The notes below the pieces were generated by a model. It saw nothing but the letters and a program-made list of their open reading frames with translations. It made no database searches and had not been told where the DNA came from. Below are positions 5,749 through 55,356 of a DNA stretch of 64,000 bases, piece by piece (the stretch's first letter is position 1; each line of letters starts with the position of its first letter). Origin of the DNA: Chiloscyllium plagiosum (lineage: Eukaryota); NCBI RefSeq assembly GCF_004010195.1, contig NC_057718.1:62604311-62668310 (forward strand), given 5' to 3'. A program made the translations under genes and the position numbers.

Positions 5749-7024
5749 ACCATAAGACATAGGAGCAGAAATGAGGCCATTCGGCCCATCGAGTCTGCTC
5801 CACCATTCAATCATGGCTATGTTTCTAAATCCCATTCTCCTGCTTTCTCCCTGTAATCCTTAATCCCCTTAACGATCAATAATCTATCTATCTCCATCTT
5901 AAATATACTCAAACACCTAGCCTCCACGGCCTTCTATGGCAGTGAATTCCATAAATTCACCACTTTTTGGCTGAAGAAATTTCTCCTTATCTCCATTCTA
6001 AAAGGTCTTCCCTTTACTCTAAGGCTGTGCCCTCAGGTCCTAGCCTGTTCTACCAATGGAAACATCTTCCCAATATCCACTCTGTCCAGGCCATTCAGTA
6101 TTCTGTAATTTTCAATCCGATCACCCCCTCACCCTTCTAAACTCCATCGAGTATAGTCCCAGAGTCCTTAAACGTTCCTCATATGTTAATCTTTTCATTC
6201 CTGGGACTATTCTCGTGAACCTCCTCTGAATGCGCCCCAGGGCCAGTACATCCTGCCTGTGATATGGGGCCAAAAACTGTGCACAGTACTCTAAATGTGG
6301 TCTGACCAGGGCCTTATAAAGCTTCAGAAGTACAAGTTCAAGTTCTCTCAAAATAAATGCCAACATTGCATTTGCTTTCCTAACTCCTAATTAAACCTGC
6401 AAGGTTGCCTTGAGAGAATCCTGGACTAGAATGTTCAAGTCTCTTTGCACTTCAGACTTCTGAATTTTCTCCCCATTTAGAAAATCGTCTATGCTTCTGT
6501 TTATCAAAGTGCATGACTTCACACTTTCCCACGTTGTACTCCACTTGCCACTTCTTTACCCACTCTCCTAACCTGTCCACATCCTTCTGCAGCCTCCCCG
6601 CCTCCTCAGTACTACCTGTCCCTCTACCTATCTTTGTGTCATCTGCAAACTTAGCCAGAATACCCTCAGTTCCTTCATCTAAATTGTTAATGTATAAAGT
6701 GAAAAGTTGTGCTCTGAACGCTGACACTTGCAGAACACCACTTGTCACCAGCTGCCTTCCTGAGAAAGACGCTTTTATCCCTACTCTCTGCTTTCTGCCA
6801 GGCAGCCAATCTTCAATCCATGCTTGCACTTTGCCTCTAACACCATGTGCCCTTTTCTTACACAGCTGCCTCCTGTGCGGCACCTTCTCAAAGGCCTTCT
6901 TGAAGTCCAAGTAGATAACAACCATTGGCTCACCTTGGTCTAACCTGCATGTTATTTCCTCAAAGAATTCTAGCTGATTTGTCAGGTATGACCTCCCCTT
7001 GATGAAACCATGCTTTGCCCTATT
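5749..7024 (-). mobile_element. CR1 LINE, 5'-truncated (RT to 3' tail)
   Basis: ORFs 6452-6925 (YLDFKKAF...FADDTK) and 6121-6366 (LVRPHLEYC); cataaga tail. Confidence 0.92.
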
Positions 7025-7562
7025 TAAAAGGCATAAATGCTTGTGTAGATTAAGAACGAACGAGTATTAACATTAATGAGAGAGCAGCATGAACCTTGCT
7101 GGATTGAGCAGCCATTGAGGTCTCACCATCCCCACGTGAACAGTCATGCTGCTGTCCAACTAAGTCCACTGTTTTCTCCTCAAGTGGGGTGAAGGGCCTA
7201 ATGGCTGCTTGCCCCTTGCTAGTTCTCAACCTCTTGGCCCAGTTATGGGCCATTTCTTCCTATAATGAGACAATGGGAGGATTTGAATATAGTGGAAGTT
7301 GATGAAAGAACAGTTAGTGATAATACAGGATTGTGGGGGGGGAGCTGGTAAGGTGGACCCCAGTAAGTGTGTGGAGCGCAGATGGCAGGATGGGTTAGTC
7401 GTAGTTGGGAGTATAAGGTGGGTGAGAACCATTGAGTGGACATGATGCATACTATAGTGAGCTCTTTTTATTTGTTCATGGGAAGCGGGCCACATTTGCT
7501 TTGCCATCATTTATTGCGCATTCCTGATTGTTCAGAGGACAGTTAAGAATCAACCAGATTGT

Positions 7563-10365: not shown

Positions 10366-10629
10366 AAAATGCTATAAAGCAATTTGTAAATAATTAAAAC
10401 TTATTGCTTAGCCGAAGGAACAAGGATGATCAGTGAGCTGGACTTAACTTAAGCTAGGACATAAGCGGTACACTTTTTGATTTCTCAAGTTTACAGAGGG
10501 TAGGATAAAAGAGGATGGCCAAAAATAGTCAAGTCTGGAGATGGAATAAAATTTGGATGAAGGTTTCAGCAAGGCAGGGGTAGGGTTGAGCAATATACAA
10601 TTCATAGTGAGGGTACAGATATATGTTTG

Positions 10630-10824
10630 AGGAGAAAGTGAGGTCTGCAGATGCTAGAGATCAGAGCTGAAAATGTGTTGCTGGAAAAGCGCAGCAGGTC
10701 AGGTAGCATCCAGGGAACAGGAGAATCGACGTTTCTGAAGAAGGGCTTATGCCCGAAACGTCGATTCTCCTGTTCCCTGGATGCTACCTGACCTGCTGCG
10801 CTTTTCCAGCAACACATTTTCAGC
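10630..10824 (+). mobile_element. Palindromic Penelope-derived mini-element with perfect 71-bp arms and 16-bp TSD
   Basis: Arms 10665-10735 and 10755-10825 are exact reverse complements. TSD tacagatatatgtttg at 10614-10629/10825-10840. Unpaired tail of about 35 nt. Confidence 0.92.
10735..10762 (+). ncRNA. Minimal hammerhead ribozyme core (PLE type)
   Basis: CUGAAGA-A-GGGC-UUAU-GCCC-GAAA-CGUC: all core nucleotides present, 4-bp stem II, self-complementary ACGU stem III, GUC triplet. Confidence 0.8.
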
Positions 10825-11290
10825 TACAGATATATGTTTGTAAATTCAACTTGAAGTCAACTTATGAACAATTGATATAGCTTCAAATGGTTGCTGCAAA
10901 AGAGGATAGAGTTTCTGGCTAAGCAATGTTTGTGGAGTGAATGGACAATAATGGTTTCAGTTTTCTTAGTATTTAGCTGGAGAAAATGTCTGCTTATACA
11001 CTATTAGATGTTGGAAAAGCATTTTGACAAGTTTGAGACAGTGAAGCGGTTGAGATAAATGTTGGTGAGGTAGTGGCAGGTATTGCCAGTGTACTTTATA
11101 ATTTCTCATATGTTTTTGGCTGATTTCACTGAGAGTCAATATAGAAATGAGAATTAGCAGGGAGCCAAATATAAATCCTTGGGTAAATCAGAGGCACCAA
11201 TAGGAAAAAAAAGCTATTATGAGTAGATAGCTAAGAAAAAAACAGAACTCTGCATCCCCCCGCCAGCTGAACAATGATGAAGAGGCCTTC

Positions 11291-16711: not shown

Positions 16712-16959
16712 GTAAACTTGATTTCAAGTTATGTGGTTTAAATGAAGATTGCACATGGTACTTATTACTTAAAAATCTTTTAACTATGGCCTTCTAAAGA
16801 CCCATTTTTGAAGCTGCACAACATTGTTTGCTGAGTTGAAACACAGACACACACACACACACACAAATGCATAATGAAGCACTTGAACAGTACAGGACAT
16901 CTGTAATCATAATATGTTGCATGTAAAATGCATGCACTGTCCAACTGGGAAATCATGTT

Positions 16960-17885
16960 TCACTTGATTGAGTTTTTGAAGAAGATTGTTGAGGGCAGAG
17001 TAGTAGATGTGATCTATATGGACTTCATTAAGGCGTTCGACAAGATTCCCCATGGGAGACTGATTAGCAAGTTTAGATCTCATGGAATACAGGGAGAACT
17101 AGCCATTTGGATACAGAACTGGCTGAAAGGTAGAACTCAGAGGGTGGTGGTGGAGGGTTGTTTTTCAGACTGGAGACCTGTGACCAGTGGAGTGCCACAA
17201 GGATCGGTGCTGGGCCCTCTACATTTTGTCATTTACATAAATGATTTGGATGCGAGCATAAGAGGTACAGTTAGTAAGTTTGCAGATGACACCAAAATTG
17301 GAGGTGTAGTGGACAGNNNNNNNNNNNNNNNNNNNNNNNNNNNNNNNNNNNNNNNNNNNNNNNNNNNNNNNNNNNNNNNNNNNNNNNNNNNNNNNNNNNN
17401 NNNNNNNNNNNNNNNNNNNNNNNNNNNNNNNNNNNNNNNNNNNNNNNNNNNNNNNNNNNNNNNNNNNNNNNNNNNNNNNNNNNNNNNNNNNNNNNNNNNN
17501 NNNNNNNNNNNNNNNNNNNNNNNNNNNNNNNNNNNNNNNNNNNNNNNNNNNNNNNNNNNNNNNNNNNNNNNNNNNNNNNNGGGAGTCCAGAACTAGAGGG
17601 CATAGGTTTAGGGTGAGAGGGGAAAGATATAAAAGAGACCTAAGGGGCAACTTTTTCACGCAGAGGGTGGTACGTGTATGGAATGAGCTGCCAGAGGATG
17701 TGGTGGAGGCTGGTACAATTGCAACATTTAAGAGGCATTTGGATGGGTAGATGAATAGAAAGGGTTTGGAGGGATATGGGCTGGGTGCTGGCAGGTGGGA
17801 CTAGATTGGGTTGGGATATCTGGTCGGCACAGACGGGTTGGACCGAAGGGTCTGTTTCCATGCTGTACATCTCTATGACTCTATA
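16960..17885 (+). mobile_element. Young CR1/HER1-type LINE, 5'-truncated, spanning an assembly gap
   Basis: [13 protein letters not shown]...[11 protein letters not shown]...FADDTK; (ctctatga)n tail. Confidence 0.92.
17317..17580. other. Assembly gap (264 N)
   Basis: Run of N. Confidence 1.
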
Positions 17886-20353: not shown

Positions 20354-20540
20354 GGTAAAAACAATGACTGCAGATGCTGGAAACCAGATTTTGGATTAGT
20401 GGTGCTGGAACAGCACAGCAGTTCAGGCAGCATCCGAAGAGCAGCAAATTCCTGATGAAGGGCTTTTGCCCGAAATGTCGATTTTGCTGCTCCTCGGATG
20501 CTGCCTGAACTGCTGTGCTCTTCCAGCACCACTAATCCAA
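20354..20540 (+). mobile_element. Palindromic Penelope-derived mini-element with central hammerhead
   Basis: Arms about 20391-20449 and 20481-20540; TSD tgtgaaata at 20345-20353/20545-20553. Confidence 0.9.
20452..20479 (+). ncRNA. Minimal hammerhead ribozyme core closed by a long stem I
   Basis: CUGAUGA-A-GGGC-UUUU-GCCC-GAAA-UGUC; the flanks gcagcaaattc/gattttgctgc pair directly next to the core. Confidence 0.8.
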
Positions 20541-21559
20541 TAACTGTGAAATACTCCTTCACCAGTAATGCAAGTCCTCACACCCTTTACATCCCTTTCT
20601 ATCACACCTGAAACATCTAAATCCTGTCCCTCTTTCAGCCATCTCCTTAATCGCAATAACGTCATAGTTGTAATTACTAACCAAAGCTCTGAGTTAATCT
20701 ACCTTTGCCTATTATACTACTTGCATTGAAACACATGCAGTTCAGACCACCTCTCCTGCTCTTTTCAGCAGCGTTTCCCTGCCTGTTTTTGTTCTTAATT
20801 ACATTTGCCTTGGTTTCTATCTCTCCCTCAATTTTGACATCTTCTGCCCTACCCCTCTGGTTCCCATCCCCCGCCACACTAGTTTAAACCATTCCAACCA
20901 CTCTACCATATACCCCCACCTCTGCCAGAACCGGTCCCATTGCCCCATGAATCTGAAACCCTCCTCCTCACATCATCTTTTTAGCCACGTGTTCATCCTA
21001 TATATCCTGCTGTTTCTACTCTGATTAGCTTGTGGCACTGGTAGTAGTCCTGTGATAACTATCTTAAGGGCATACATTTCAACTTTCTTCCTAATTCTCT
21101 ATATTCAGCGTTTAGATTTCATGCTTTTTTAACCTATGTCGTTAGTACTAACGTGTACCATGACCACTAACTGTTTGCCCTTCCTCTCCAGAATGTCCTG
21201 CACCTATCACTAGGAAGGCAGCTCACCATCCTGGACTCTCATTTGAAGCTACAGAAATGCCTATCTATTTCCCTTATGATTGAACCCCCTATAGCTAAAA
21301 CATTTCTATGCCTATTTCTCCCTCCCTGTGCAGCAGAGCCAACCATGGAACCATGAATTTGCTGCTCTTGTTATCCCCTGAGAGACCATTCCCCTCAACA
21401 GTATCCAAAACGGTGTATCTATTTTGCAGGGGAATAGCCACAGAAGATTCCAGCACTGCCTGCTAAGCCCTCCCACTCAGCCTGGTGGTCACACATTCCC
21501 TTTCTACCTGTGGAGTCTGAGACTGTGGCATGGCCACCTCTCTATGCATGCTGTCTATT

Positions 21560-24500
21560 GGTGTTCCTGATGCCCATTTCACTGCTGGCATCCCCCAAGG
21601 TTCAAGAAGATCAGATTTAACCTGGTGTGGAGCCTTCTTCCCATTAGCAACTCTGCTGCAGCTATCCCTGTGGTTGTATGAGGGGTGGTCTGATAATCAA
21701 ATAAGAACTGTGAGAGTCCACCCCCCCCCCCCCCCCAAAAAAACACCAATTCCCCTCCCTCCATATTTGATGAATAAACTGTATGCACATCCAAGTATTT
21801 TGAGTGGGCACCACAATGACTGAGAACATTAAGCCCATGAAAAGGGTCAGCATGGTTGACATGTAACTGAATGCAGGATTTACCCAGTCATTCCCACAAA
21901 TGTGGGGAGCTGCTGATGGTAATTTTTTCCCTTGGTGACACTCTGGGCAATGCCCCCACCAACATGGCTATGTCTGCATCCAACCCTGGCCACCAAACAT
22001 AGCTTCCCACCAACATCTTCATTTTGGATATTCCTGGATGACCTTGATGGAGTATCTGGCAGCAACCTTTGCTCGAAACAATCATTCTTGCTCCCTTTAA
22101 TAAATTGCAATCCTTTACAGTGATCTGGTCTCACGGGATCTAGAAACATTTCGGTTCTGGTTATGATGGCTGTTTCATTTTCCCCATCACTACCAGCTGA
22201 TTACCAGGATAAGATCTTTTTGTGTCCACAGTCTGATATTGTTTGTGGTGACCAGAAGGGTGTCCAGAAAGTTGGAAACAAAAACAGACTCTTCCAATAG
22301 CTGCATGATTGGTGGTGTATCTGCCAGTGGGAGATCACTCAAGGCTTCTGCATTTGCTACTTGGGTGGTATGGCCTTGTCATCTTTGAGTTGTCTGAGTA
22401 AGGGTTTACAGTCTGTTATTATTACAAATTTATGTCTATAACGGTATTGCTGGAACTGTCTCGCACTAAAGATGACTGCCAAACCTTCCTTCTCGTTTGG
22501 GCATATTTGCGCTCTGTATCAGCCAAAATCCAAGAAGTGTATGAAATTGGGTGTTCTTCTCCATTCGGCCATCTGTGAGCCAACATTACCCTGATACCGT
22601 GTGGGGAGGCATCAGTGGTCAGCACCAGATCTCGCTTGGGCTCATAGTGTACCAACACCTTTGACAGTGATAGCTGCTTCTTCACTTCCCTAAAGGAAGA
22701 CTTGTCTCCAAGGTTGTCCCTTTGTCAATAACAGATTTAAGAGTGCCAGGGTAGAGGCCATGTTACAAATGAACTTTCCATTATAATTTACCAATCCAAG
22801 GAAAGACCTAACCTCTGTTACAGACTTGGGAGTCAGGGCACCTTTGATCACCCTCATTTTGTCTTCCAACAGGTATAACCCAGTCTTGTCAACGCTGTAG
22901 TTCAAGTAGGTCACTTGAGGATCCTGAATATACATTTTTCCCTTTTAAGGTGTACACCCACCTTGGAAAAGTGTCTAAGGACTACATCTAAGTTTTGTAA
23001 ATGCTGTTTATTGGTCTTCCCTGTTATTAGCACATCATCCAGATACATGGCAACTTGGGGTAGACCTTATAAAACATTCTCCGTAATCCACTGAAAAATG
23101 GCACAGGCTGATGATACCCCAAATGGCAGTCTCATATATTGGTACAAATCTTTATGGATGTTAATTATAGCATACATCTGGGAAATCTTATCTAACTGCA
23201 GTTACAGGCATGCATGACTCATGGCCAGCATTGTGAGGGAAACCAGCTTTGCTTGTATGTCATCCATGCGAGGAATTGAGTATTTATTCAGCTGCAAGAA
23301 GCGGTTTGCTATTTTCTTTAAAATCCCCACAAAGATGGATTAACCTGTCAGTCTTCACAATTGGTACGGTTGGTGCTGCCCATTCCACAAACCGTACTGG
23401 TTTCATTATTCCTTTCCTTTCCAGCCTCCTGATTTCTGCCTCTACTTTTGCACATAATGGTGCTAGGTAGGCCTTGCAAAATCATGGAATTCCTTCTGGG
23501 TTAACATGCACAGTGGTTTTAGCTCCTACCTTCCTAAAAAACTTCCGTGGATTTAAATAGGGTTTCACTCTAGTTGAAAATGTTGAGCCAATCTAGGTGA
23601 ATCTTCCTCAACCAATTTCACCCTATCAAACTTGGACCCAAACCTTTTACTACAAGCAGGGGTAACTGAACCAGCTGCTTTTCAAGAAACCGGAACTGAA
23701 GTTATATCCCCAACGTAGATTCTCTGTCTAGCCGAGGTCTTATGCAAACTTAAGGGTTGGAGTCCAGAGCAAAATTTGTTAAAAACTGGTTCTGCAATGA
23801 GTGATACAGCCTTGCCAATTCCATTAGAACCGGGTGACCATTTAACCAGACATTTATTTTGATTGGTCCTGATTTGGATATTGCTAAGCAATTTAACTGT
23901 TCCAAACCAGATGTAGGTGTGCTTTCCTACTTTCTCCTGGATACCAGCCAATGTATTCTTCTACTCCATTCAGGCCTAATAGGGTTGTTTTGTTGTTTTA
24001 AGTCAGCAATTACAATGACTTTCCAGCCCAGGTCCTGGAGGAAATATTAACCATTTGGCTGGGGCTAGGGATTTTACTGTGCGCAGAGCTAGAGTCCCTC
24101 CATTCAGGATAAGCACGGAGTGAGGCTATGTAATTGCCTTCACTCAAGTGGTGTCCCCCAAGGTCAGTTGGCCTGGTGAGGGTATGCACATCCATCGACA
24201 TACTCTGTAACCCATAGGCTCCACTTGCTGCATTTTCTCATGACAAAGCCAGTTGTAAGTGCCTGTTTGAAGTCCAATTGGGCTTCTGCTACCACCTGCT
24301 TTTGCATGGCTACATCATTAATCCCACATGCCAAATGGTCTCTTAGCATCTCATTAAAGGTTAAACCAAAGTCACATGCCTCTGCCAGTCATCTAAACCT
24401 CATCAAAAACCCCAACATTTCTCTGGTTCTTGAACTGCCCAGTAAAATTGATACCATCTCAGAATTAGAGAAGGCTTGGGGTCAGAATATTACTTCAGTA

Positions 24501-26200: not shown

Positions 26201-27900
26201 TGATGGAGGGGTGGTGTTTGCTGAAGGCTTCAGCAATGCTGCAGGTCCCTTACAGCAAGTGTGTCTCTGCTCAGAAACAAACTCTGAGACAGCATGGATT
26301 TAGTTGGTGGCAAAAGAACAACCTCCGATTTTGCCCTTCGCATGTTATAAACTGTGCGTAATTTTCCCGTATTTAACATTTTTACGAGGGTGTGTTTGGT
26401 ATGCAAGACTATATTCCCTGTCATCAGAATAAGCTCACTCACCCTCACAGCCCACGCAGAACAGTCTAAAGCAGCCATACATCTGGGCAAGCCATTCATA
26501 GAACATAGAACATAGAAGAATACAGCGCAGTACAGGCCCTTTGGCCCTCGATGTTGCGCCGATCCAAGCCCACCTAACCTATACTAACCCACTATCCTCC
26601 ATATACCTATCCAATGCCCGCTTAAATGCCCATAAAGAGGGAGAGTCCACCACTGCTACTGGCAGGGCATTCCATGAACTTACGACTCGCTGAGTGAAGA
26701 ACCTACTCAGCCCCAGGTGCCTCAGTCTTTCCTCATACGATTTTCCTTTCATACCAGGCAACATCCTGGTAAACCTCCTCTGCACCCGTTCCAGTGCCTC
26801 CACATCCTTCCTATAGTATGGCGACCAAAACTGCACACAATATTCCAGATGCGGCCGCACCAGAGTCTTATACAACTGCATCATGACCTCAGGACTCCGG
26901 AACTCAATTCCTCTACCAATAAAAGCCAGTACGCCATATGCCTTCCTCACCGCACTATTTACCTGGGTGGCAACTTTCAGAGATCTGTGTACATGGACAC
27001 CAAGATCCCTCTGCTCATCCACACTACCAAGTATCCGACCATTAGCCCAGTACCCCATCTTTTTGTTTTTCTTCCCAAAGTGAATCACCTCACACTTAGC
27101 TACATTGAATTCCATTTGCCACCTTTCTGCCCAGCTCTGCAGCTTCTCTATATCCTGCTGTAACCTGCCACATCCTTCACTACAGGACCACCATTCACTA
27201 CGGGACCCTCAGCAGCATAAGAGTACCCTATAGGTCACCTTTGTTCGCCATGGAGCTGCGTTACTACTGCTTAGTAAAAACCTCCCTCTTCGTTGCAGTA
27301 AATGTGGAATTCTTTACTAGCATCTGGTAATCCCAGTCCCGGTGCTGAGATTAACTCCACTTTCAGTTTTGTATAAGAGTCGTCTTGCTCCAGCCCCCAG
27401 TCAACAGGGCCTGTTGCAGGTTTACTCCCTTTTACCAATTGTTGTATGGGCTCGACCAGTTCGGCAAACTCAGGGATAAAGTTTCTGCAGTAATTAAACA
27501 AGCCCAAGACCTTTCTCATACCATGGACTGTTACGGGCCATGGCATCTGTTGTATAGCTGGCTTCCTGTCTGCAAGCATTTCTTTCATGCCTTGGGAAAT
27601 TAAATGTCCCAAGTAAAGAACTCTAGTTTTCCCAATGTGAGCTTTCTCTAGCTGGCTTTTAACCCTCTGTCCTGCAAGTGCTTCAGGACTAAGTATAGCA
27701 CCTCCTGATGTCTTGGTTTGGATTCAGAAGCCAGGAGGATGTCATCGATATATTGGACTATTATACTGCCATGTGGCAGGTCAATCTCCCTGAGTACGTC
27801 ACTCATTATACAGTGAAAGATGGCTGGACTATTATGGAATCTCTAAGAAAGTCTTGTCCAAATATACTGTTTATCATCTGTCAGCCAGGGTTCCCTCATT
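26200..27900 (-). pseudogene. pol: Endogenous retrovirus pol fragment (RT and connection), split by a CR1
   Basis: WTRLS*RFHNSPAIF, VQYIDDILLA (YIDD at 27741-27752), LGLFNYCRNFIPEFA, SAPGLGLPDASKEF, PVVNG|LPRC. Confidence 0.88.
26499..27190 (-). mobile_element. Young CR1 insertion with internal deletion and 7-bp TSD
   Basis: ORF 26579-27115 is CR1 RT C-terminus; (catagaa)n tail; TSD ccattca at 26492-26498/27191-27197. Confidence 0.92.
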
Positions 27901-30607: not shown

Positions 30608-31049
30608 AGCAGGAACAGATTTTGGAATCTATACTGAAAACAACAAATGCTGGAGATCACAATGGGTCAGACATTATCCATGGAGAGAGAGCAAGCTAAC
30701 GTTCTAGGTCTAGATGACTCTTCATCAGAATATTACTTGTTATGTTCTCCCATTTCTTTCCTTTCTTTTAGCTTTACTTGTTCCATTCTCAGCCACCATA
30801 TCCGCTCTACCCACCCCCCCCACCCAAGTTTCAAGTCTGCTGTTCTCACATTCAATCACTTAATCTGAACTATCAATATCTTTTCTCCACCAGCACTCCA
30901 CACCCCACCACCACCCCCCTCCAAACTATTGTATAAATGCTGTCCCCATCTACAATTCACTTCAGTTCTGATGAAGAGTCATCTAGACTTGCTCTCTCTC
31001 CCCATGGATACTGTCTGACATGCCATGTTCTCCAGCATTTGTTGTATCC
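30608..31049. mobile_element. Penelope-derived inverted-pLTR element with two opposed degenerate hammerheads and 13-bp TSD
   Basis: TSD ctacaaatgttca at 30595-30607/31050-31062. ctgatgaagagtcatctagac occurs on - (about 30708-30728) and on + (30968-30988). Confidence 0.85.
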
Positions 31050-31231
31050 CTACAAATGTTCAGCCATTTAAGTGTGGGAATATCATAGCAGAGCTGATCC
31101 TCATCTAAATGTACACAACCATGGACTTTACCAGAAAAGTGGTATATAGTGGGGCTACCAATGATCCAACTACCACAAACTAACTCAGAACAGAACTGAC
31201 ATTGCATCTTTGACTTTTCTGATCACATGGA

Positions 31232-38350: not shown

Positions 38351-39406
38351 CACTGTTGGAGGCAATCTTACAGTATAGACATGTAAAAGCAACCTGATCC
38401 AAACCATATTGCAATATGAATGAATGAAGTAAATATAGAATTCTGGTGTAAGCATATGAAGATTTTCAACTGCCTAGATTTATAATGTTTTGTAGCCTCC
38501 TTTTGAAGGTTCATAGACTAATTTAGCCATTTTCCTGATCATTAGACATGACCCTTGATACGTCTGTTGGAAACTGCTGCTCATCTTCATGAGGGCTGCA
38601 GAAAGAGTTTGTATTTTTGTACTGTCACGATGATGCAAAATATAAAGTTTTAAATTGGTTGATGAGAATTTAAATATTAAAAACCTTGAACTTTGACATT
38701 GAGAGCAAAAAGCCAAAAATGACTTGGAATAAAATGGCTGCTAAAGTCATAGAATTATACAGTACAGAAGAGGTCCTTCAGCTAATCAAGACTGTATTGC
38801 CAAAATTCTACACTAGTTCCACTTTGCAGCTCTAGGCTCACAGACTTGCATGTTATGACATTTTAAATGCTCATCCAAGCACCTTTATAAATGTTGTCAG
38901 GTTATCCATGGCAGGCAGTGCTTTCCAAACCCCTATAGCCTTTTGTTTTCCCAAGTCTACCTCTAAAATGTGGCCCCTTGTTATTGGTCCTCAATTAAAA
39001 TGAACAGCTACTTCCCACCTTTTTCATGTCCCTCATAATCTTACATACTTCCATCAGGCCCCTTCTCAACCTTCTCTGCTCCAAAGAAAACAACCTCTCT
39101 TCATAGCAAAGATGCTCCATCCCGAGTAACATCCTGGTGAATCTCTAACCATATCTATGCAATCACATTCTTCCCACAGTATGGAGACAAGAACTCCACA
39201 AATTATTCCAGCTCTGGCATAGCCAAAATCTGACCCACTTAAGTTCTCTGCTCTTATATTCTATGCCTCAACTGATTAAAAACAAGTGTCCCCTATGCCT
39301 TCTTAACTATCCTATTAACGTGATCTGCCTTCAGGGATCTGTGACAAGCACTTTAAATCTCTCTATTCCTCTGAGCTTCTGAGAGTCCTGCCATTCATTA
39401 AGTACT

Positions 39407-41015
39407 GGATCAGTGGTGCTGGAAGAGCACAGCAATTCAGGCAGCATCCGAGGACAGGCAAAATCGACGTTTCGGGCAAAAGCCCTTCATCAGGAATAAA
39501 GGCAGAGAGCCTGAAGCATGGAGAGATAAGCTAGAGGAGGGGGGGGGGGGGGAGAGAGTAGCATAGAGTACAATAGGTAGGTGGGGAAGGAGATGAAGGT
39601 GATAGGTCAGGGAAGAGAGGGTGGAGTGGATAGGTGGAAAACGAGCTGGGCAGGTCGGACAAGTCCGGACAGGTCAGGGGATCGAGTTTCTGGAGGTTAG
39701 AAGCTAGGATGAGGTGGGGGAAGGGGAAATGAGGAAACTGTTAAAATCCACATTGATGCCCTGGAGTTTAAGTGTTCCGAGGCGGAAGATGAGGCATTCT
39801 TCCTCCAGGCGTCTGGTGGTGAAGGAGCGGCGGTGGAGGAGGCCCAGCACCTCCATATCCTCGGCAGAGTGGGAGGGGGAGTTCAAATGTTGAGCCACGG
39901 GGCGATTTGGTAAGTGCCAGGATGGGAGGGTGGGTGGTAGGGGGGCGTGGACCTGACCAGGTAGTCACGGAGGGAACGGTCTTTGCGGAAGGCTGAGAGG
40001 GGTGGGGAGGGAAATATATCCCTGGTGGTGGGGTCTGTTTGGAGGTGGTGGAAATGTCGGCGGATGATTTGGTTTATGCGAAGGTTGGTAGGGTGGAAGG
40101 TGAGCACCAGGGGTGTTCTGTCCTTGTTGCGGTTGGAGGGGTTGGGTCTGAGGGCGGGGGTGCGGGATGTGGATGAGATGCGTTGGAGGGCATCTTTAAC
40201 CACGTGGGAAGGGAAATTGCGGTCTCTAAAGAAGGAGGCCTTCTGGTGTGTTCTGTGGTGGAACTGGAATTGGGAATACGGGATGGTATATTTGCAGGAG
40301 GTAGGTGGGAAGAGGTTTAATCCAGGTAGCTGTGGGAGTCGGTGGGTTTGTAGAAAATGTCAGTGTCAAGTCTGTCGTCACTGGGGATGGAGAGGTCCAG
40401 GAAGGGGAGGGATGTGTCAGAGATGGTCCAGGTAAATTTAAGGTCAGGGTGGAATGTTTTGGTGAAGTTGATGAATTGCTCAACCTCCTGTGGGAGCACG
40501 AGGTGGCGCCAATGCAGTCATCAATGTAGCGGAGGAATAGGTGGGGAGTGGTGCCGGTGTAATTATGGAAGATCAACTGTTCTACGTAGCCAACAAAAAG
40601 ACAGGCATAGCTGGGGCCCATATGGGTTCCCATGGCTACCCCTTTGGTCTGGAGGAAGTGGGAGGATTCAAAGGAGAAATTGTTAAGGGTGAGGACCAGT
40701 TCGGCCAAACGAATGAGAGTGTCGGTGGAAGGGTACTGTTGGGCTCGTCTGGAGAGGAAAAAACGGAGGGCTTAGAGGCCCTGATTATGGCGGATGGAGG
40801 TGTAGAGGGATTGGATATCCATGGTGAAGATGAGGCATTGGGGGCTGGGGAAACGGAAGTCTTGGAGGAGGTGGAGGGCGTGGGTGGTGTCTCGAACGTA
40901 TGTGGGGAGTTCCTGGACTAGGGGGGATAGGACAGTGTCAAGGTAGGTAGAGATGAGTTCAGTGGGGCAGGAGCATGCTGAGACAATGGGTCGGCCAGGG
41001 TGGTCAGGCTTATGG
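39407..41015 (-). mobile_element. Penelope-like retroelement (RT, partial GIY-YIG, pLTR), 10-bp TSD
   Basis: GRPIVS, MDIQSLYTSI, QTKGVAMG, FLRYIDD; TSD attaagtact at 39397-39406/41016-41025. Confidence 0.95.
39466..39493 (-). ncRNA. Intact minimal hammerhead core in PLE pLTR
   Basis: CUGAUGA-A-GGGC-UUUU-GCCC-GAAA-CGUC. Confidence 0.82.
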
Positions 41016-41819
41016 ATTAAGTACTCCCTTGTTATGTTACTTCTTCTGAAGTGGGTCACCTGACACTTAACAGAGTTAAATTCCATCTGTTACTTACCTA
41101 ACCTGACAGCAGTGTTCAAAGTACATGGGGTTAGTGGGAAGATTTCCAAGTCACCTGAGGAAATTTACTCACAAGTGCAAACAATCAGAGAAAATTAAGG
41201 AGCCGAAAGCCTGTGAAGGGCTTGGAGAGGGGAGAGGGATTGCTGGAGCCAAGGGATTAAAGTTGGGGCCAAATGCCAGGGTAAGGAGCATGCCGCTGTT
41301 TTACCAATGCTGGAAGGGGAGTTTAGGAGCCACATCTTTAGTGAACAGGTAGACAGTAACGTGAGTCACAGAGTGTTGAGGTGTAAGAAGGAGGCTGAAA
41401 AGTAATCTGGGAGATAGGAAGGCCATAAGCGTGATAGGGAAATGGAAAAGCAGCAAGGGAGTTGGGAGCAAATAGAGCAGGGAATGGGAAAGAGAGATAC
41501 ATGTTGTAAAGAAGAGAGAACAATTTCAACACAACAAAGGAACACTCAGCAAACTAGGAGCGAGGAAGATTTGAAGTAACTGAGGTAATGAATTATTTAC
41601 AAATTAATGTGGAATCCCTAGTTAATGTTGCATGTGACCAGAAGCTGGCGAAGCAGGCTTGAGGATATGAAAAGACTGCTCCTGTTCCTACTTCTTATGT
41701 TCCATAGGAGACAAATGCCATGGATGCTATCATGATGAACACTGTGTCAATTGTTACATTTAAATCTGAGTTTGAGATCTGAGATGCAGTAAAAGGGTAA
41801 TATCTGCCTGGTTAAAATA

Positions 41820-42514: not shown

Positions 42515-45105
42515 ATGATGACATAAAAATAGGTAAGAAAATGAGTTGTGAAGAGGACACATGGAGCCTACAAATTGATACAGATAGGTTAAGTGAGTGT
42601 ACGCGATTTGCTAAACCTTTGCCCAATGTGGGGCAGTGTGAAATTGTGCAATTGGGCAGAGAGAATAAAAAGAAGCATGTTATAAATGGTGAGAGGTTGC
42701 AGAGTTCTGAGATGCTGAGACAGTCCTGGTGCGTGAATCACTGAAGGATAATATGCAGGAACAGCAAATAATCAGGAAAGCTGATGTTATGCTTTATTGC
42801 AAGAGGAAATTGAATGCACCAGTAAGGAAGTTATGCTTCAGTTGTACAGGATATTGGTGAGACCGCATTTGGAGCACTGTGTACAATCCTCGTCATTGTA
42901 TTTACAGTATAATGTTAATGCATTAGAAGCAGTTCAGAGAAGGTTTACTGGACTAACATCTGAAGTGAGGAGACAGTGAGGTCTGTAGATGCTGGAGATC
43001 AGAATTGCGAGTGTGTTGCCGGAAAGGCATAGGAGGTCAGGCAGCATCTAAGAAGCAAGAAAATCGATGTTTCGGGCTGGAGCCCTTCATCAAGAATGAG
43101 GGGCTGGAGCCCTTCATCAAGAATGAGGCTGGGAGCCTCCGGGGTGGAGAGATAATTAGGAGGGGAGTGGGGTATGGGGAGAAGGTAGCTGAGAGTGCAA
43201 TAAATGGATGGAGGTGGAGTTAAAGGTGATAAATCGGAGAGGAGGGTGGAGCAGATAGGTGGGAAGGCAGATTGACAGGTCATGAGGGCAGTGCTGAGCT
43301 GGAAGGTTGGAACTGGGGTAAGGTGGGGGGAGAGGAAATGAGGAAACTGGTGGAGTCCACATTGATGCCCTGGGGTTGGAGGGTTCCGAGGAGGAAGATA
43401 AGGCGTTCTTCCTCCAGGCGTTGGGTGGTAAGGGAGTGGTGATGGAGGAGGCCCAGGACCTGCATCTCCTCGGCAGAGTGGGAGGGAGAGTTAAAATGTT
43501 CAGCCACGGGGCGGTGTGGTCGATTGGTGAGGGTGTTGCGGAGATGTTCTCTAAAGCGCTCCATGAGAAGGCATCCAGTCTCCCCAATGTAGAGGAGACC
43601 GCATCGGGAGCAATGGATACAATAAATGACGTGTGGAAGTGCAGGTGAAGCTTTGATGGATGTGAAAAGCTCCTTTGGGGCCTTGGGCGGAGGTAAGGGG
43701 GGAGGTATTGGCGCAGTTTTTGCAGTTCCTGTGGTGGCAGGGGAAGGTGCCAGGAGGGGAGGGTGGGTTTTTGGGGTGTGTGGACCTGACCAGGTGGTCA
43801 CGGAGGGAACGGTCTTTGCAGAAAGCGGATAGGGTGGGGAGGGATGGTGGGGTCCGTTCGTTGGTGGCGGAAATGTCGGCGGATGATACGATTTATGTGG
43901 AGGTTGGTGGGGTGGAAGTGAGGACCAGGGGGGTTCTGTCTTTGTTGCGGCTGGAGGGGTGGAGTTCGAGGGCAGAGGTGCGGGACGTGGATGAGATGCA
44001 TTAGAGGGCGTTTTCAATCACGTGGAAGGGGAAATTTCGGTCTTTAAAGAAGAAGGCCATCTGGTGTGTTCTGTGGTGGTACTGGCCCTCCTGGGAGCAG
44101 ATGCGGCGGAGGCAGGGGAATTGGGAATACGGGATAGAATTTTTGCAGGAGGTAGGGTAGGAGGAGCTGTAATCCAGGTAACTGTGGAAGTCAGTGGGTT
44201 TGTAAAAAATGTCAGTGTCGAGTCAGTCCTCGTGGATGAGATGGAGAGGTCTCGGAAGGGGAGGGATGTGTCAGAGATGGTCCCGGTGAATTTAAGGTCT
44301 GGATGGAATGTGTTGGTGAAGTTAATGAACTGTTCGACCTCCTTGTGGGAGCACGAGGTGGCGCCGATGCAGTCATCAATGTAGTGGAGGAAGAGGTGGG
44401 GAGTGGTGCTCGTGTAACTACAGAAGATGGACTATTCTACATAGCCGACAAAGAGACAGGCATAGCTGGGGCCCATGTGGGTGCCCATGGCTACCCCTTT
44501 TGGCTGGAGGAAGTGGGAGGATTGGAAGAAGAAATTGTTGAGGATGAGGACCAGTTCAGCCAAACGAATAAGAGTGTCAGTGGGGACGTCGGGAGAAGAA
44601 GAAACAGGGGCCCTGGTCATGCATATGGAGGTGTAGAGGGATTGGATGTCGTCTGAAGTGAGCAAATTACCTTCCGCGGAAATGCTAAACAAACTAAGCC
44701 CTGTATCCTCTGGAGTTTAGAAGAATCAGAAATATTTCATAGAAACATACAAGAACTTGAGGCGACTTCACTGAGTGGATGTTGAAAGGATCTTTCCTTT
44801 TTTGGGAGAATGTAGAAGTAGGGCTCATAGTTTAAACATAAGGACTTGCCCATTTTAAACAGGTGAAACATTTTTTTCTCTCAGAGGGTTGAAAGTCTTT
44901 GGAAAAGTCTTGAAAGTAGGCAGATGCAAAACCTTTAAATATTTTTAAGGCAGCAGCAGCTATATTCTTGATTCCTGAGGGGATGAAGTTTGTCAGGAAT
45001 ATGTAGGGAAGTAGAGTTGGGGTTAAAATCAAATCAGCCATGATCATATTGAACAGTGGTACAGGCTCAAAGGGCCAATAGGCCTACTCTTGTTCATTGT
45101 ATGTA
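42515..45105 (+). mobile_element. Old CR1 3' fragment hosting a Penelope insertion
   Basis: LYRILVRPHLEHC...EAVQRRFT; resumes after 44662. Confidence 0.8.
42970..44651 (-). mobile_element. Penelope-like retroelement (RT, GIY-YIG, pLTR), 11-bp TSD
   Basis: DIQSLYTSI, KGVAMG, VIYCIHCSRCGLLYIGETG; TSD tctgaagtgag at 42959-42969/44652-44662. Hammerhead at about 43066-43093 has C3>U. Confidence 0.95.
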
Positions 45106-53654: not shown

Positions 53655-54237
53655 ACCATAAGACCAGAAGATACAGGAGCAGAATTAGGCCATTCAGTCC
53701 ATCAAATCTGCCCTGCCATTCATTCATGGCTGATATGTTCCTCAACCCCAATCTCCTGCCTTCTTCCTATAACATTGAACTCCTAGCTAATCAAGAGCCT
53801 ATTTGTCTCTGTCTTAAATACACTTAATGAATTGGCCTCTACAGCTCTCTCCATTTTGAAAATAGTCTATGCCTCTATTGCTCATACTTTGCTACATTGT
53901 ATTCCATCTGCCACTTCTTTCCCCACTCACTTGGCATGTCCAAATCCTGCAACCACCCACACCCCCAGTTTTCTCATCACTATCTATCCTTCCGCATATC
54001 TTTGTGTCATCTGCAAACATAGCAACAATGCCCTCCATTCCCTCATTCAGATCGTTAATGTGAATAGTTATGGTCCCAACACTGGCCTCTGTGGAACTCC
54101 ACTAGTCACTGGCTCCCATTCTAAAAAAAACTCATTTATCCCTGCTCTCTGCCTTCTGTCAGTTAGCCAATCCTCTATCCAAACCAGGACGTTGACGGAA
54201 CACCATAGGCTGTTAGCTAATTTGATAGCCTCTGTGT
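53655..54237 (-). mobile_element. CR1 fragment with internal deletions
   Basis: WIEDWLTDRRQR...VTSGVPQ; cataaga tail. Confidence 0.8.
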
Positions 54238-54335
54238 GGCTGAAAATGTGTTGCTGGAAAATGTGTTGCAGCAGGTCAGGCAGCATCCAAGGAGCAGAAG
54301 AATCGACATTTCGGGCATGAGCCCTTCTTCAGGAA
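54238..54335 (-). mobile_element. Penelope pLTR fragment with hammerhead core at 54305-54332
   Basis: CUGAAGA-A-GGGC-UCAU-GCCC-GAAA-UGUC; same family as 10630-10824. Confidence 0.82.
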
Positions 54336-55040: not shown

Positions 55041-55249
55041 ATTAGATTAGATTAGATTACATTACATTACATTACATTACGTGTGGAAACAGGCCCTTCA
55101 GCCCAACAAGTCCACACTGACCCGCCGAAGCGCAACCCACCCATATCCCTACATTTACCCCTTACCTAACACTACGGGCAATTTAGCATGGCCAATTCAC
55201 CTGGCCTGTGTGAGGCAGCAGTGCTAACCACTGTGCCACCGTGCTGCCC
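55041..55249 (-). mobile_element. HE1-type SINE with internal deletion
   Basis: Head and tail match 7757-8077; central part missing at about 55208. Confidence 0.9.
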
Positions 55250-55274
55250 ATAAATTGAAAATCGTTGATAACAA

Positions 55275-55356
55275 CGACGAGAGTGGGACTCGAGCCCACG
55301 CGCGTAGAACACAATGGATTAGCAATCCATCGCCTTAACCTCTCAGCCACCTCGTC
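55275..55356 (-). tRNA. tRNA-Ser (anticodon GCU), divergent, possibly a pseudogene
   Basis: 82-nt cloverleaf GACGAGGTGG...TTGCTAA...CTCGTCG with long variable arm. T-loop CTCGAGT instead of TTCGAAT. No encoded CCA; T4 about 13 nt downstream. Confidence 0.88.

Follow-up and report, generated by a model that had tools for sequence, protein, structure and literature searches.

The 195-bp insert at positions 10630-10824 of the window (the whole stretch of 64,000 nucleotides of Chiloscyllium plagiosum DNA that was analysed) consists of two head-to-head copies of the pLTR end module of a GIY-YIG Penelope-like element (PLE). It is the outcome of one integration event of an EN+ PLE, in which two pLTR copies of one template lineage, one with a tail end and one with an end about 35 nt shorter, lie between target site duplications (TSDs) from a staggered cut. 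We consider it likely, and with good confidence, that such palindromes arise by priming from both ends on a single RNA, whatever makes their 5′ edge. The whole model is favoured with moderate confidence; in it, reverse transcription is primed by the nicks in both target strands and begins at two internal sites close to where the capped RNA starts. With positions in the pLTR module counted from the C of CUGA as position 1, the insert is composed as follows.

10614-10629, no strand: left TSD of 16 bp, the usual length in relatives being 14-16 bp (35 of 49).
10630-10664, minus strand: 35-nt pLTR tail, module 92-126; 10630 is the outer 3′ end and the putative downstream start site of reverse transcription.
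10665-10735, minus strand: left arm, module 91 to 21, antisense on the plus strand; it ends before the presumed 5′ end of the RNA.
10735, no strand: junction of the two copies, with one common base; the exact junction 27-mer occurs at 39 loci.
10735-10762, plus strand: putative minimal type I hammerhead core with CUGAAGA, one extra A, a stem II of 4 bp and GAAA, in which a palindromic ACGU replaces stem III; the predicted cut lies after 10762.
10735-10825, plus strand: right, tail-less copy, module 1 to 90/91; its end is the putative upstream start site of reverse transcription.
10755-10825, plus strand: the part of the right copy that pairs with the left arm (inverted-repeat match).
10825-10840, no strand: right TSD of 16 bp, its first base common to the arm.

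Repeat analysis confirmed the outline given in the original prediction, namely a 195-bp insert with a tail of about 35 nt, perfect 16-bp TSDs (10614-10629 and 10825-10840, 100% identity) and exact inverted arms of 71 nt (10665-10735 and 10755-10825, 100% complementarity) separated by a 19-nt spacer. The hammerhead-type core (CUGAAGA-A-GGGC-UUAU-GCCC-GAAA-CGUC) likewise lies at the centre, on the plus strand at 10735-10762. As 10825 is both the last base of the right arm and the first base of the right TSD, the arms are strictly 70 bp long, with one further base of ambiguous assignment. The stretch of 35 nt at 10630-10664 is indeed an unpaired, one-sided tail, which has to be read as the 3′ end of the element on the minus strand and not as a leader. 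The plus strand folds into a single hairpin (z = -25) whose stability was equalled in 0 of 200 shuffles. A reading as pre-miRNA produced only non-specific hairpin-type Rfam matches, all below thresholds (up to E = 10), and the insert departs from a MITE in that the tail disrupts the terminal symmetry, TSDs vary from 10 to 25 bp and junctions are re-formed. The insert itself is a single head-to-head pair, with no tandem arrangement.

Copy numbers are exact pattern matches over the 3.56 Gb genome and all of them are lower bounds. Exact cores of the focal subfamily number at least 42,091, the focal junction 27-mer is present at no fewer than 39 loci, and at least 9,301 strand matches to short palindromes correspond to about 6,200 loci, if the first 93 of 100 listed rows (62 loci) are typical. 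Relatives were compared in a sample of the first 62 palindromes by position on one contig (C1, its first 27 Mb), picked with exact anchors and a maximum gap of 38 nt, a choice that leaves out longer pairs and is biased towards young copies. The list for this contig also contains head-to-head pairs in which both cores are complete, at distances of 5, 5, 10, 13, 13, 17, 27, 137, 153 and 472 nt, and perfect short palindromes survive in the assembly, grading into these longer pairs. Sampled arms differ by 3.2% on average, and the focal copy is among 11 of 62 palindromes with perfect arms. At the average age of the sampled copies, perfect 71-mer arms would have a chance of about 10%, so that the recent insertion originally proposed is hinted at rather than established.

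The Penelope-like origin claimed earlier is borne out by the location of the core 159-224 nt downstream of GIY-YIG-like coding DNA in seven of the 20 matches listed, including one locus (L139) where the core resembles the focal one. Decayed relatives in the window carry RT and GIY-YIG motifs with weak Pfam matches below the cut-offs, and together with the position of the module downstream of GIY-YIG-coding DNA they indicate that the insert represents the pLTR ends of an EN+ PLE. The RT motifs of the parent seem Neptune-like. An intact full-length parent was not obtained from the loci retrieved, as L141 is mostly N and L143 is another short head-to-head insert. Retrotransposition as opposed to a MITE, also part of the original prediction, agrees with TSDs in 49 of 53 one-tailed palindromes, of which 35 are 14-16 bp long, with an A+T content of 65%. 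The insertion signature described for EN+ PLEs combines an inverted pLTR, a one-sided tail of 30-40 bp and a TSD (PMC3846280; PMC8557442), and the insert shows an inverted 5′-truncated copy, the 35-nt one-end tail and the 16-bp TSD.

The window holds several other traces of retroelements. On the minus strand, two decayed 5′-truncated PLE copies with RT and GIY-YIG pieces and numerous stops and frameshifts are found at 39403-41089 and 42966-44716, and a single tail-less copy of the focal subfamily at 54235-54335 begins at the TTC ahead of the core. At 20356-20546, a sister PLE subfamily has left an older head-to-head pair with its tail on the left, a decayed TSD-like repeat and a sense copy that begins at ATTC. 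A PLE-like family that is more distant, and whose hammerhead-like core is different, is represented by head-to-head and paired ends at 1076-1271 and 30616-31057, and about 250 nt of internal sequence separate the ends of the pair at 30.6-31.0 kb. Other retroelement fragments with RT/RNase H-like Pfam matches are located at 6455-7066, 16913-17314, 22425-22724 and 27274-27723. A tRNA with GCT anticodon (55275-55356, minus strand, 53.9 bits) adjoins a dispersed repeat at 55049-55256 that has several copies within the window. Regarding the host gene context, the Pfam matches of 53 further ORFs of at least 95 aa in the window were confined to fragments of RT and RNase H, although short exons may be present.

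In its strongest form, the original prediction would make the insert an independently amplifying, ribozyme-centred element. A non-autonomous family of this kind (MITE-, SINE- or retrozyme-like), with a regulated ribozyme and a palindrome that is copied whole, would account for the exact junction 27-mer common to 39 loci and for the recurrence of this junction, with near-identical ends, in 16 of the 30 copies that match the focal one best, and short tandem hammerhead units do exist in this genome (L142). Nevertheless, this is a very improbable reading given the diversity of the copies. There are 39 junction classes among the 62 sampled palindromes, and members of the largest class (14 of 62) belong to three different loop subfamilies and may have their tail left or right. 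The focal junction is found on two arm haplotypes, 15 other copies with this junction are without the private A that marks both focal arms, and the commonest repeated arm differences among the best matches are CpG sites, none of them fixed. Tandem arrangement and terminal inverted repeats are both missing at the ends of the insert, and its flanks had no RNA reads (2% sample of one run). Of 181 diagnostic sites, 171 are identical between the paired arms (mean of 58% and maximum of 67% in 1000 shuffles), and 15 private variants in the 62 copies are mirrored on both arms where 1.2 would be expected, with 55 being one-sided. Diverse junctions, a junction recurring across subfamilies and haplotypes, and mirrored arm variants thus indicate that each palindrome was formed anew from one template lineage. 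Recurrence of junctions can be ascribed to microhomology: overlaps of at least 2 nt are present in 32 of 50 insertion-free joins compared to about 12% expected, and 12 of 62 junctions contain inserted bases. The insert is therefore very probably a PLE insertion product and not a member of a self-copying family. Sharing of junctions is nonetheless genuine, and a sample of 62 copies may be compatible with some amplification in a small subset. Uniqueness of every breakpoint, which was originally meant to decide against an amplifying family, turned out to be too weak a mark, as breakpoints are not all unique (39 loci with the focal 27-mer) and yet the loci that have the same junction appear to have formed independently.

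Alternatively, an assembly artefact or gene conversion after insertion could have made the perfect mirror, since palindromes assemble poorly and conversion could homogenise arms. This is hardly credible considering the intact TSDs, the thousands of varied junctions and the occurrence of similar joints in contigs from two further runs. Among non-diagnostic variants, 55 are confined to one arm and 15 are mirrored, which shows gene conversion to be inefficient.

The tandem at L142 (G000:C2:96929050-96930050) is retrozyme-like: three units, each about 205 nt long, follow one another head to tail, and two of them have a hammerhead core. Its units extend about 80 nt beyond the tail, and a G precedes the leader of the core in one unit. 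Similarly close core pairs are located at C1:26522038 and C3:21110854.

In the part of RNA run X19 that was read (about 2%), 1,817 reads fell on the repeat, 99% of which continue into unlike sequence, and no reads were found on the adjoining flanks of the insert. The private A of the focal copy is missing in 622 of 644 reads covering 10786. PLE family sequence in this RNA derives from other copies. There was no start or end peak in X19, a single-cell poly(A) library, which is unsuited to locating transcription starts or cuts. The other RNA run, X20, contributed 0 reads. As for an empty allele, no joint skipping the insert was present among the 15 joints listed of 174 in runs X15 and X17. Two places (window 10486-10609 and 10825-10835) stand out: contigs of both runs have holes left of the insert, and in one X15 contig the match starts only at 10835 and extends to the right, preceded by 91 letters of other sequence, which may reflect a different allele.

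The outer ends of the arms fall into two clusters, at module 124-126, where 62 of 124 sampled arms terminate, and at about 86-94, which includes the last base before the TSD at the short end in 46 of 48 mapped relatives. Unpaired copies terminate at these two places as well. Tail and short end are combined in 53 of the 62 pairs, with four tail-tail pairs and five in which one arm is broken; tail-less pairs were not seen at all, compared to 13.6 expected under independence (P about 2e-7). No common sequence follows the tail in the 143 tail ends examined; 866 genome matches continue past the tail. At the short end, TSD and RNA overlap by 1.5 nt on average (0.58 nt when shuffled). In 43 of 62 copies, among them the focal insert, the arms are not nested, as one is tailed and the other has more 5′ sequence. 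Among the 53 pairs of tail and short end, it is the tail-less arm that extends further 5′ in 39 (P = 0.0008) and the tailed arm in 14.

These patterns would result from the following mechanism. The transcript would start, with a cap, at the A of ATTC, four bases ahead of the hammerhead core. The RT-endonuclease, probably as a dimer, would nick both target strands about 15 bp apart, and each nick would prime a cDNA on a shared RNA, the two cDNAs beginning at different internal start sites approximately 95 and 130 nt from the 5′ end of the RNA. The leading cDNA would run off this 5′ end while the trailing cDNA would usually halt earlier, and the two 3′ ends would then be joined via 1-4 nt of microhomology and filled in. 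Such a product would have no ORF and no upstream sequence and would be a dead end in which the hammerhead is uncut cargo. Two-ended priming explains the non-containment, the one-of-each ends, the mirrored variants and the 5′ bias of the tail-less arm, which is expected to be further 5′ if it is leading on a shared RNA. In vitro, the anole Poseidon protein has been described to nick and extend both strands and to reverse transcribe from two internal sites bounding the tail; it is a predicted dimer, and uncleaved RNA suffices (PMC11167929). The overlap of 1.5 nt between TSD and RNA is slightly at odds with the homology-free priming seen in vitro.

Self-priming, proposed for rotifer Penelopes (PMC3846280), offers a different origin of the inverted arm: one cDNA or antisense template would fold back and copy itself. 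Mirrored arms and junction microhomology are both predicted by fold-back and both observed, the 19 of 62 copies with the tail on the arm that reaches further 5′ are partly compatible with it, and the 14 of 53 with a tailed arm further 5′ could partly come from it. As a general source of these palindromes it is unlikely, because the copied arm must lie inside the first, and this is violated in the 43 of 62 copies, the focal copy among them, that have a tail on one arm and more 5′ sequence on the other. For most copies fold-back is thus contradicted unless one side of the loop was lost by subsequent trimming and the tail came from a separate step, and it leaves unexplained why the second arm ends at the site used by single tail-less copies.

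A second line of argument concerns the sharp inner edge at ATTC. In 60 untargeted cores, the number of native upstream bases was at most 5 in 40 cores, 8 in one, 22-59 in five and at least 60 in 14, with none at 9-21. The same 5′ edge is found in 21 of 41 copies without an inverted partner, and 7,371 cores genome-wide begin at ATTC after a non-native base compared to 15,370 that continue upstream. Cleavage by the ribozyme was rejected as the source of the edge, which lies 32 nt upstream of the predicted cut, and the sampled arms include no class that starts at the cleavage site. A cut after an upstream CUC was also rejected, as no hammerhead pairing puts it in the core. The native context CTCATTCC fits the pyrimidine-A initiator consensus. 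By hand count, the base ahead of ATTC in the first 100 cases listed is G in 61, A in 28 and T in 11. An extra G at full-length 5′ ends of L1 has been ascribed to the cap (PMC9341517), and Penelope of D. virilis has an initiator and an internal promoter within the pLTR (PMC2377424). The extra G can partly be explained without a cap, via the G of the opposite arm: hand counts of the first 100 G-starts listed gave 24 preceded by a full opposite arm supplying the G and about 15 more that follow other opposite-arm sequence ending in G.

The ATTC edge could instead be an endonuclease cut and not a transcription start, as the anole enzyme prefers cutting at ATT (PMC11167929), or the centre could have been trimmed later by palindrome collapse, with priming still two-ended in either case. 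Resolution by endonuclease has been suggested (PMC8557442), head-to-head pairs with 5 to 472 nt between cores are among those listed, and the inserted bases in 12 of 62 junctions would also be in line with this. We regard such an origin of the edge as rather unlikely, although less so than fold-back. Collapse cannot make an edge that is equally sharp in copies without a partner, and perfect short-loop palindromes persist. A cut by the endonuclease is disfavoured by the fit of the native context to an initiator and by the excess of G over T, which stays at about 46 to 11 once the cases with a full opposite arm are removed.

With two-ended priming on a capped RNA as the preferred reading, the ribozyme takes on a minor role. 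The candidate core matches features listed for minimal hammerheads in PMC4209133 (conserved core, stem II, palindromic remnant of stem III and an NUH cleavage site). The search with hammerhead models proposed in the original prediction was run in Rfam and gave no hammerhead match at the gathering score nor up to E = 10, which is unsurprising for a motif without stem III, so that the assignment was made by reading the core against the published features. At the focal locus the native stem I strand AUUC is replaced by GUUU from the other arm, permitting only weak pairing, and the core is paired in the hairpin. The proposal that the left arm locks the ribozyme off is supported by the predicted fold, in which every tested core position of the plus strand transcript is paired with a probability above 0.99 and opening would cost 16.6 kcal/mol; the lock is predicted to form once the core is transcribed. 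The shorter arm begins at module 8-27 in all 62 sampled pairs, so that the cut site is covered and a lock follows from geometry. The predicted lock is hence a geometric by-product and the ribozyme, on this modelling, a passenger here, which would be central since the template RNA seems to begin 4 nt ahead of it and not because it cut there. Minimal PLE hammerheads are described to cleave poorly, and as dimers (PMC4209133; PMC6765202), and such ribozymes otherwise require the protein (PMC11167929).

In twin priming of L1, both nicks prime on one RNA, which leads to an inversion with microhomology. The inverted pieces do not overlap, and priming starts at the poly(A) tail. The PLE palindromes would have two-nick priming in common with this process, as well as the extra 5′ G that is ascribed to the cap in L1 (PMC9341517), and would differ in that both cDNAs cover the same sequence from two fixed internal sites.

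With the EN+ PLE insertions described in PMC3846280 and PMC8557442, the insert shares the head-to-head copy, the tail at one end, the TSD and a parent with RT and C-terminal GIY-YIG. Unlike these, it is only about 200 bp long, has no ORF between the repeats, is represented by thousands of copies and has a sharp 5′ edge ahead of a hammerhead, and the lack of containment between arms speaks against the self-priming proposed there. Two start sites bounding the tail, nicking and extension of both strands and dispensable cleavage are shared with the anole Poseidon PAc (PMC11167929), the main text of which draws no connection from these findings to insertions with inverted copies, nor to an RNA that begins immediately ahead of the hammerhead; in contrast to PAc, genomic copies here show a primer overlap of 1-2 nt. 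Metazoan pLTR minimal hammerheads, as presented in PMC4209133, have the same core with the extra base after A9, a G-C first pair of stem II, palindromic 15.2-16.2 and mass dispersal as singles and near pairs on opposite strands, and their cleavage as dimers is reviewed in PMC6765202. The focal hammerhead differs from those of PMC4209133 in being without its native 5′ strand of stem I and buried in a hairpin, and its single subfamily has at least 42,091 exact cores where thousands per genome were reported. Animal non-LTR retrozymes (bioRxiv 10.64898/2026.07.22.740005) are similarly protein-less, PLE-related and equipped with a type I hammerhead, but are described as head-to-tail tandem units, whereas the focal insert is a single head-to-head pair with no descent as a unit.

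The architecture of the insert has already been published, and the locus is ordinary, very common and no new element class. Its value lies in being one of thousands of natural reaction products. PMC8557442 lists the origin of tandem and inverted PLE structures among the questions still to be answered, and the printed self-priming model (PMC3846280) fails the containment test in 43 of 62 copies. Neither a prior proposal of two-ended priming for the inverted ends of PLEs nor a published description of these shark-type palindromes was found in a literature search outside subscription PLE papers and supplements; data on insertion ends in the supplement of PMC11167929, and species lists in that of PMC4209133, may be relevant to novelty.

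Hairpins of this type are prone to be mis-annotated as MITEs, SINEs or pre-miRNAs, and genomic hammerhead tallies would mostly represent dead cargo. Thousands of near-perfect 70-90-bp hairpins in host transcripts could also be a source of dsRNA against the parent element. Perhaps PLEs in general integrate by two-ended priming on one capped RNA, with a dimer that uses one internal site per nicked strand, an extension that we put forward tentatively and at somewhat less than even confidence. If true, the position of these sites at the front of the transcript would make a run-off copy of its first 95-130 nt, solo or head-to-head, the commonest product, and one rule would cover three things: why the pLTR is inverted, why only one side has a tail, and why animal genomes contain solo minimal hammerheads by the tens of thousands. 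Neither ribozyme cleavage nor self-priming would then be needed, and stem I would be built from the first four bases of the capped transcript.
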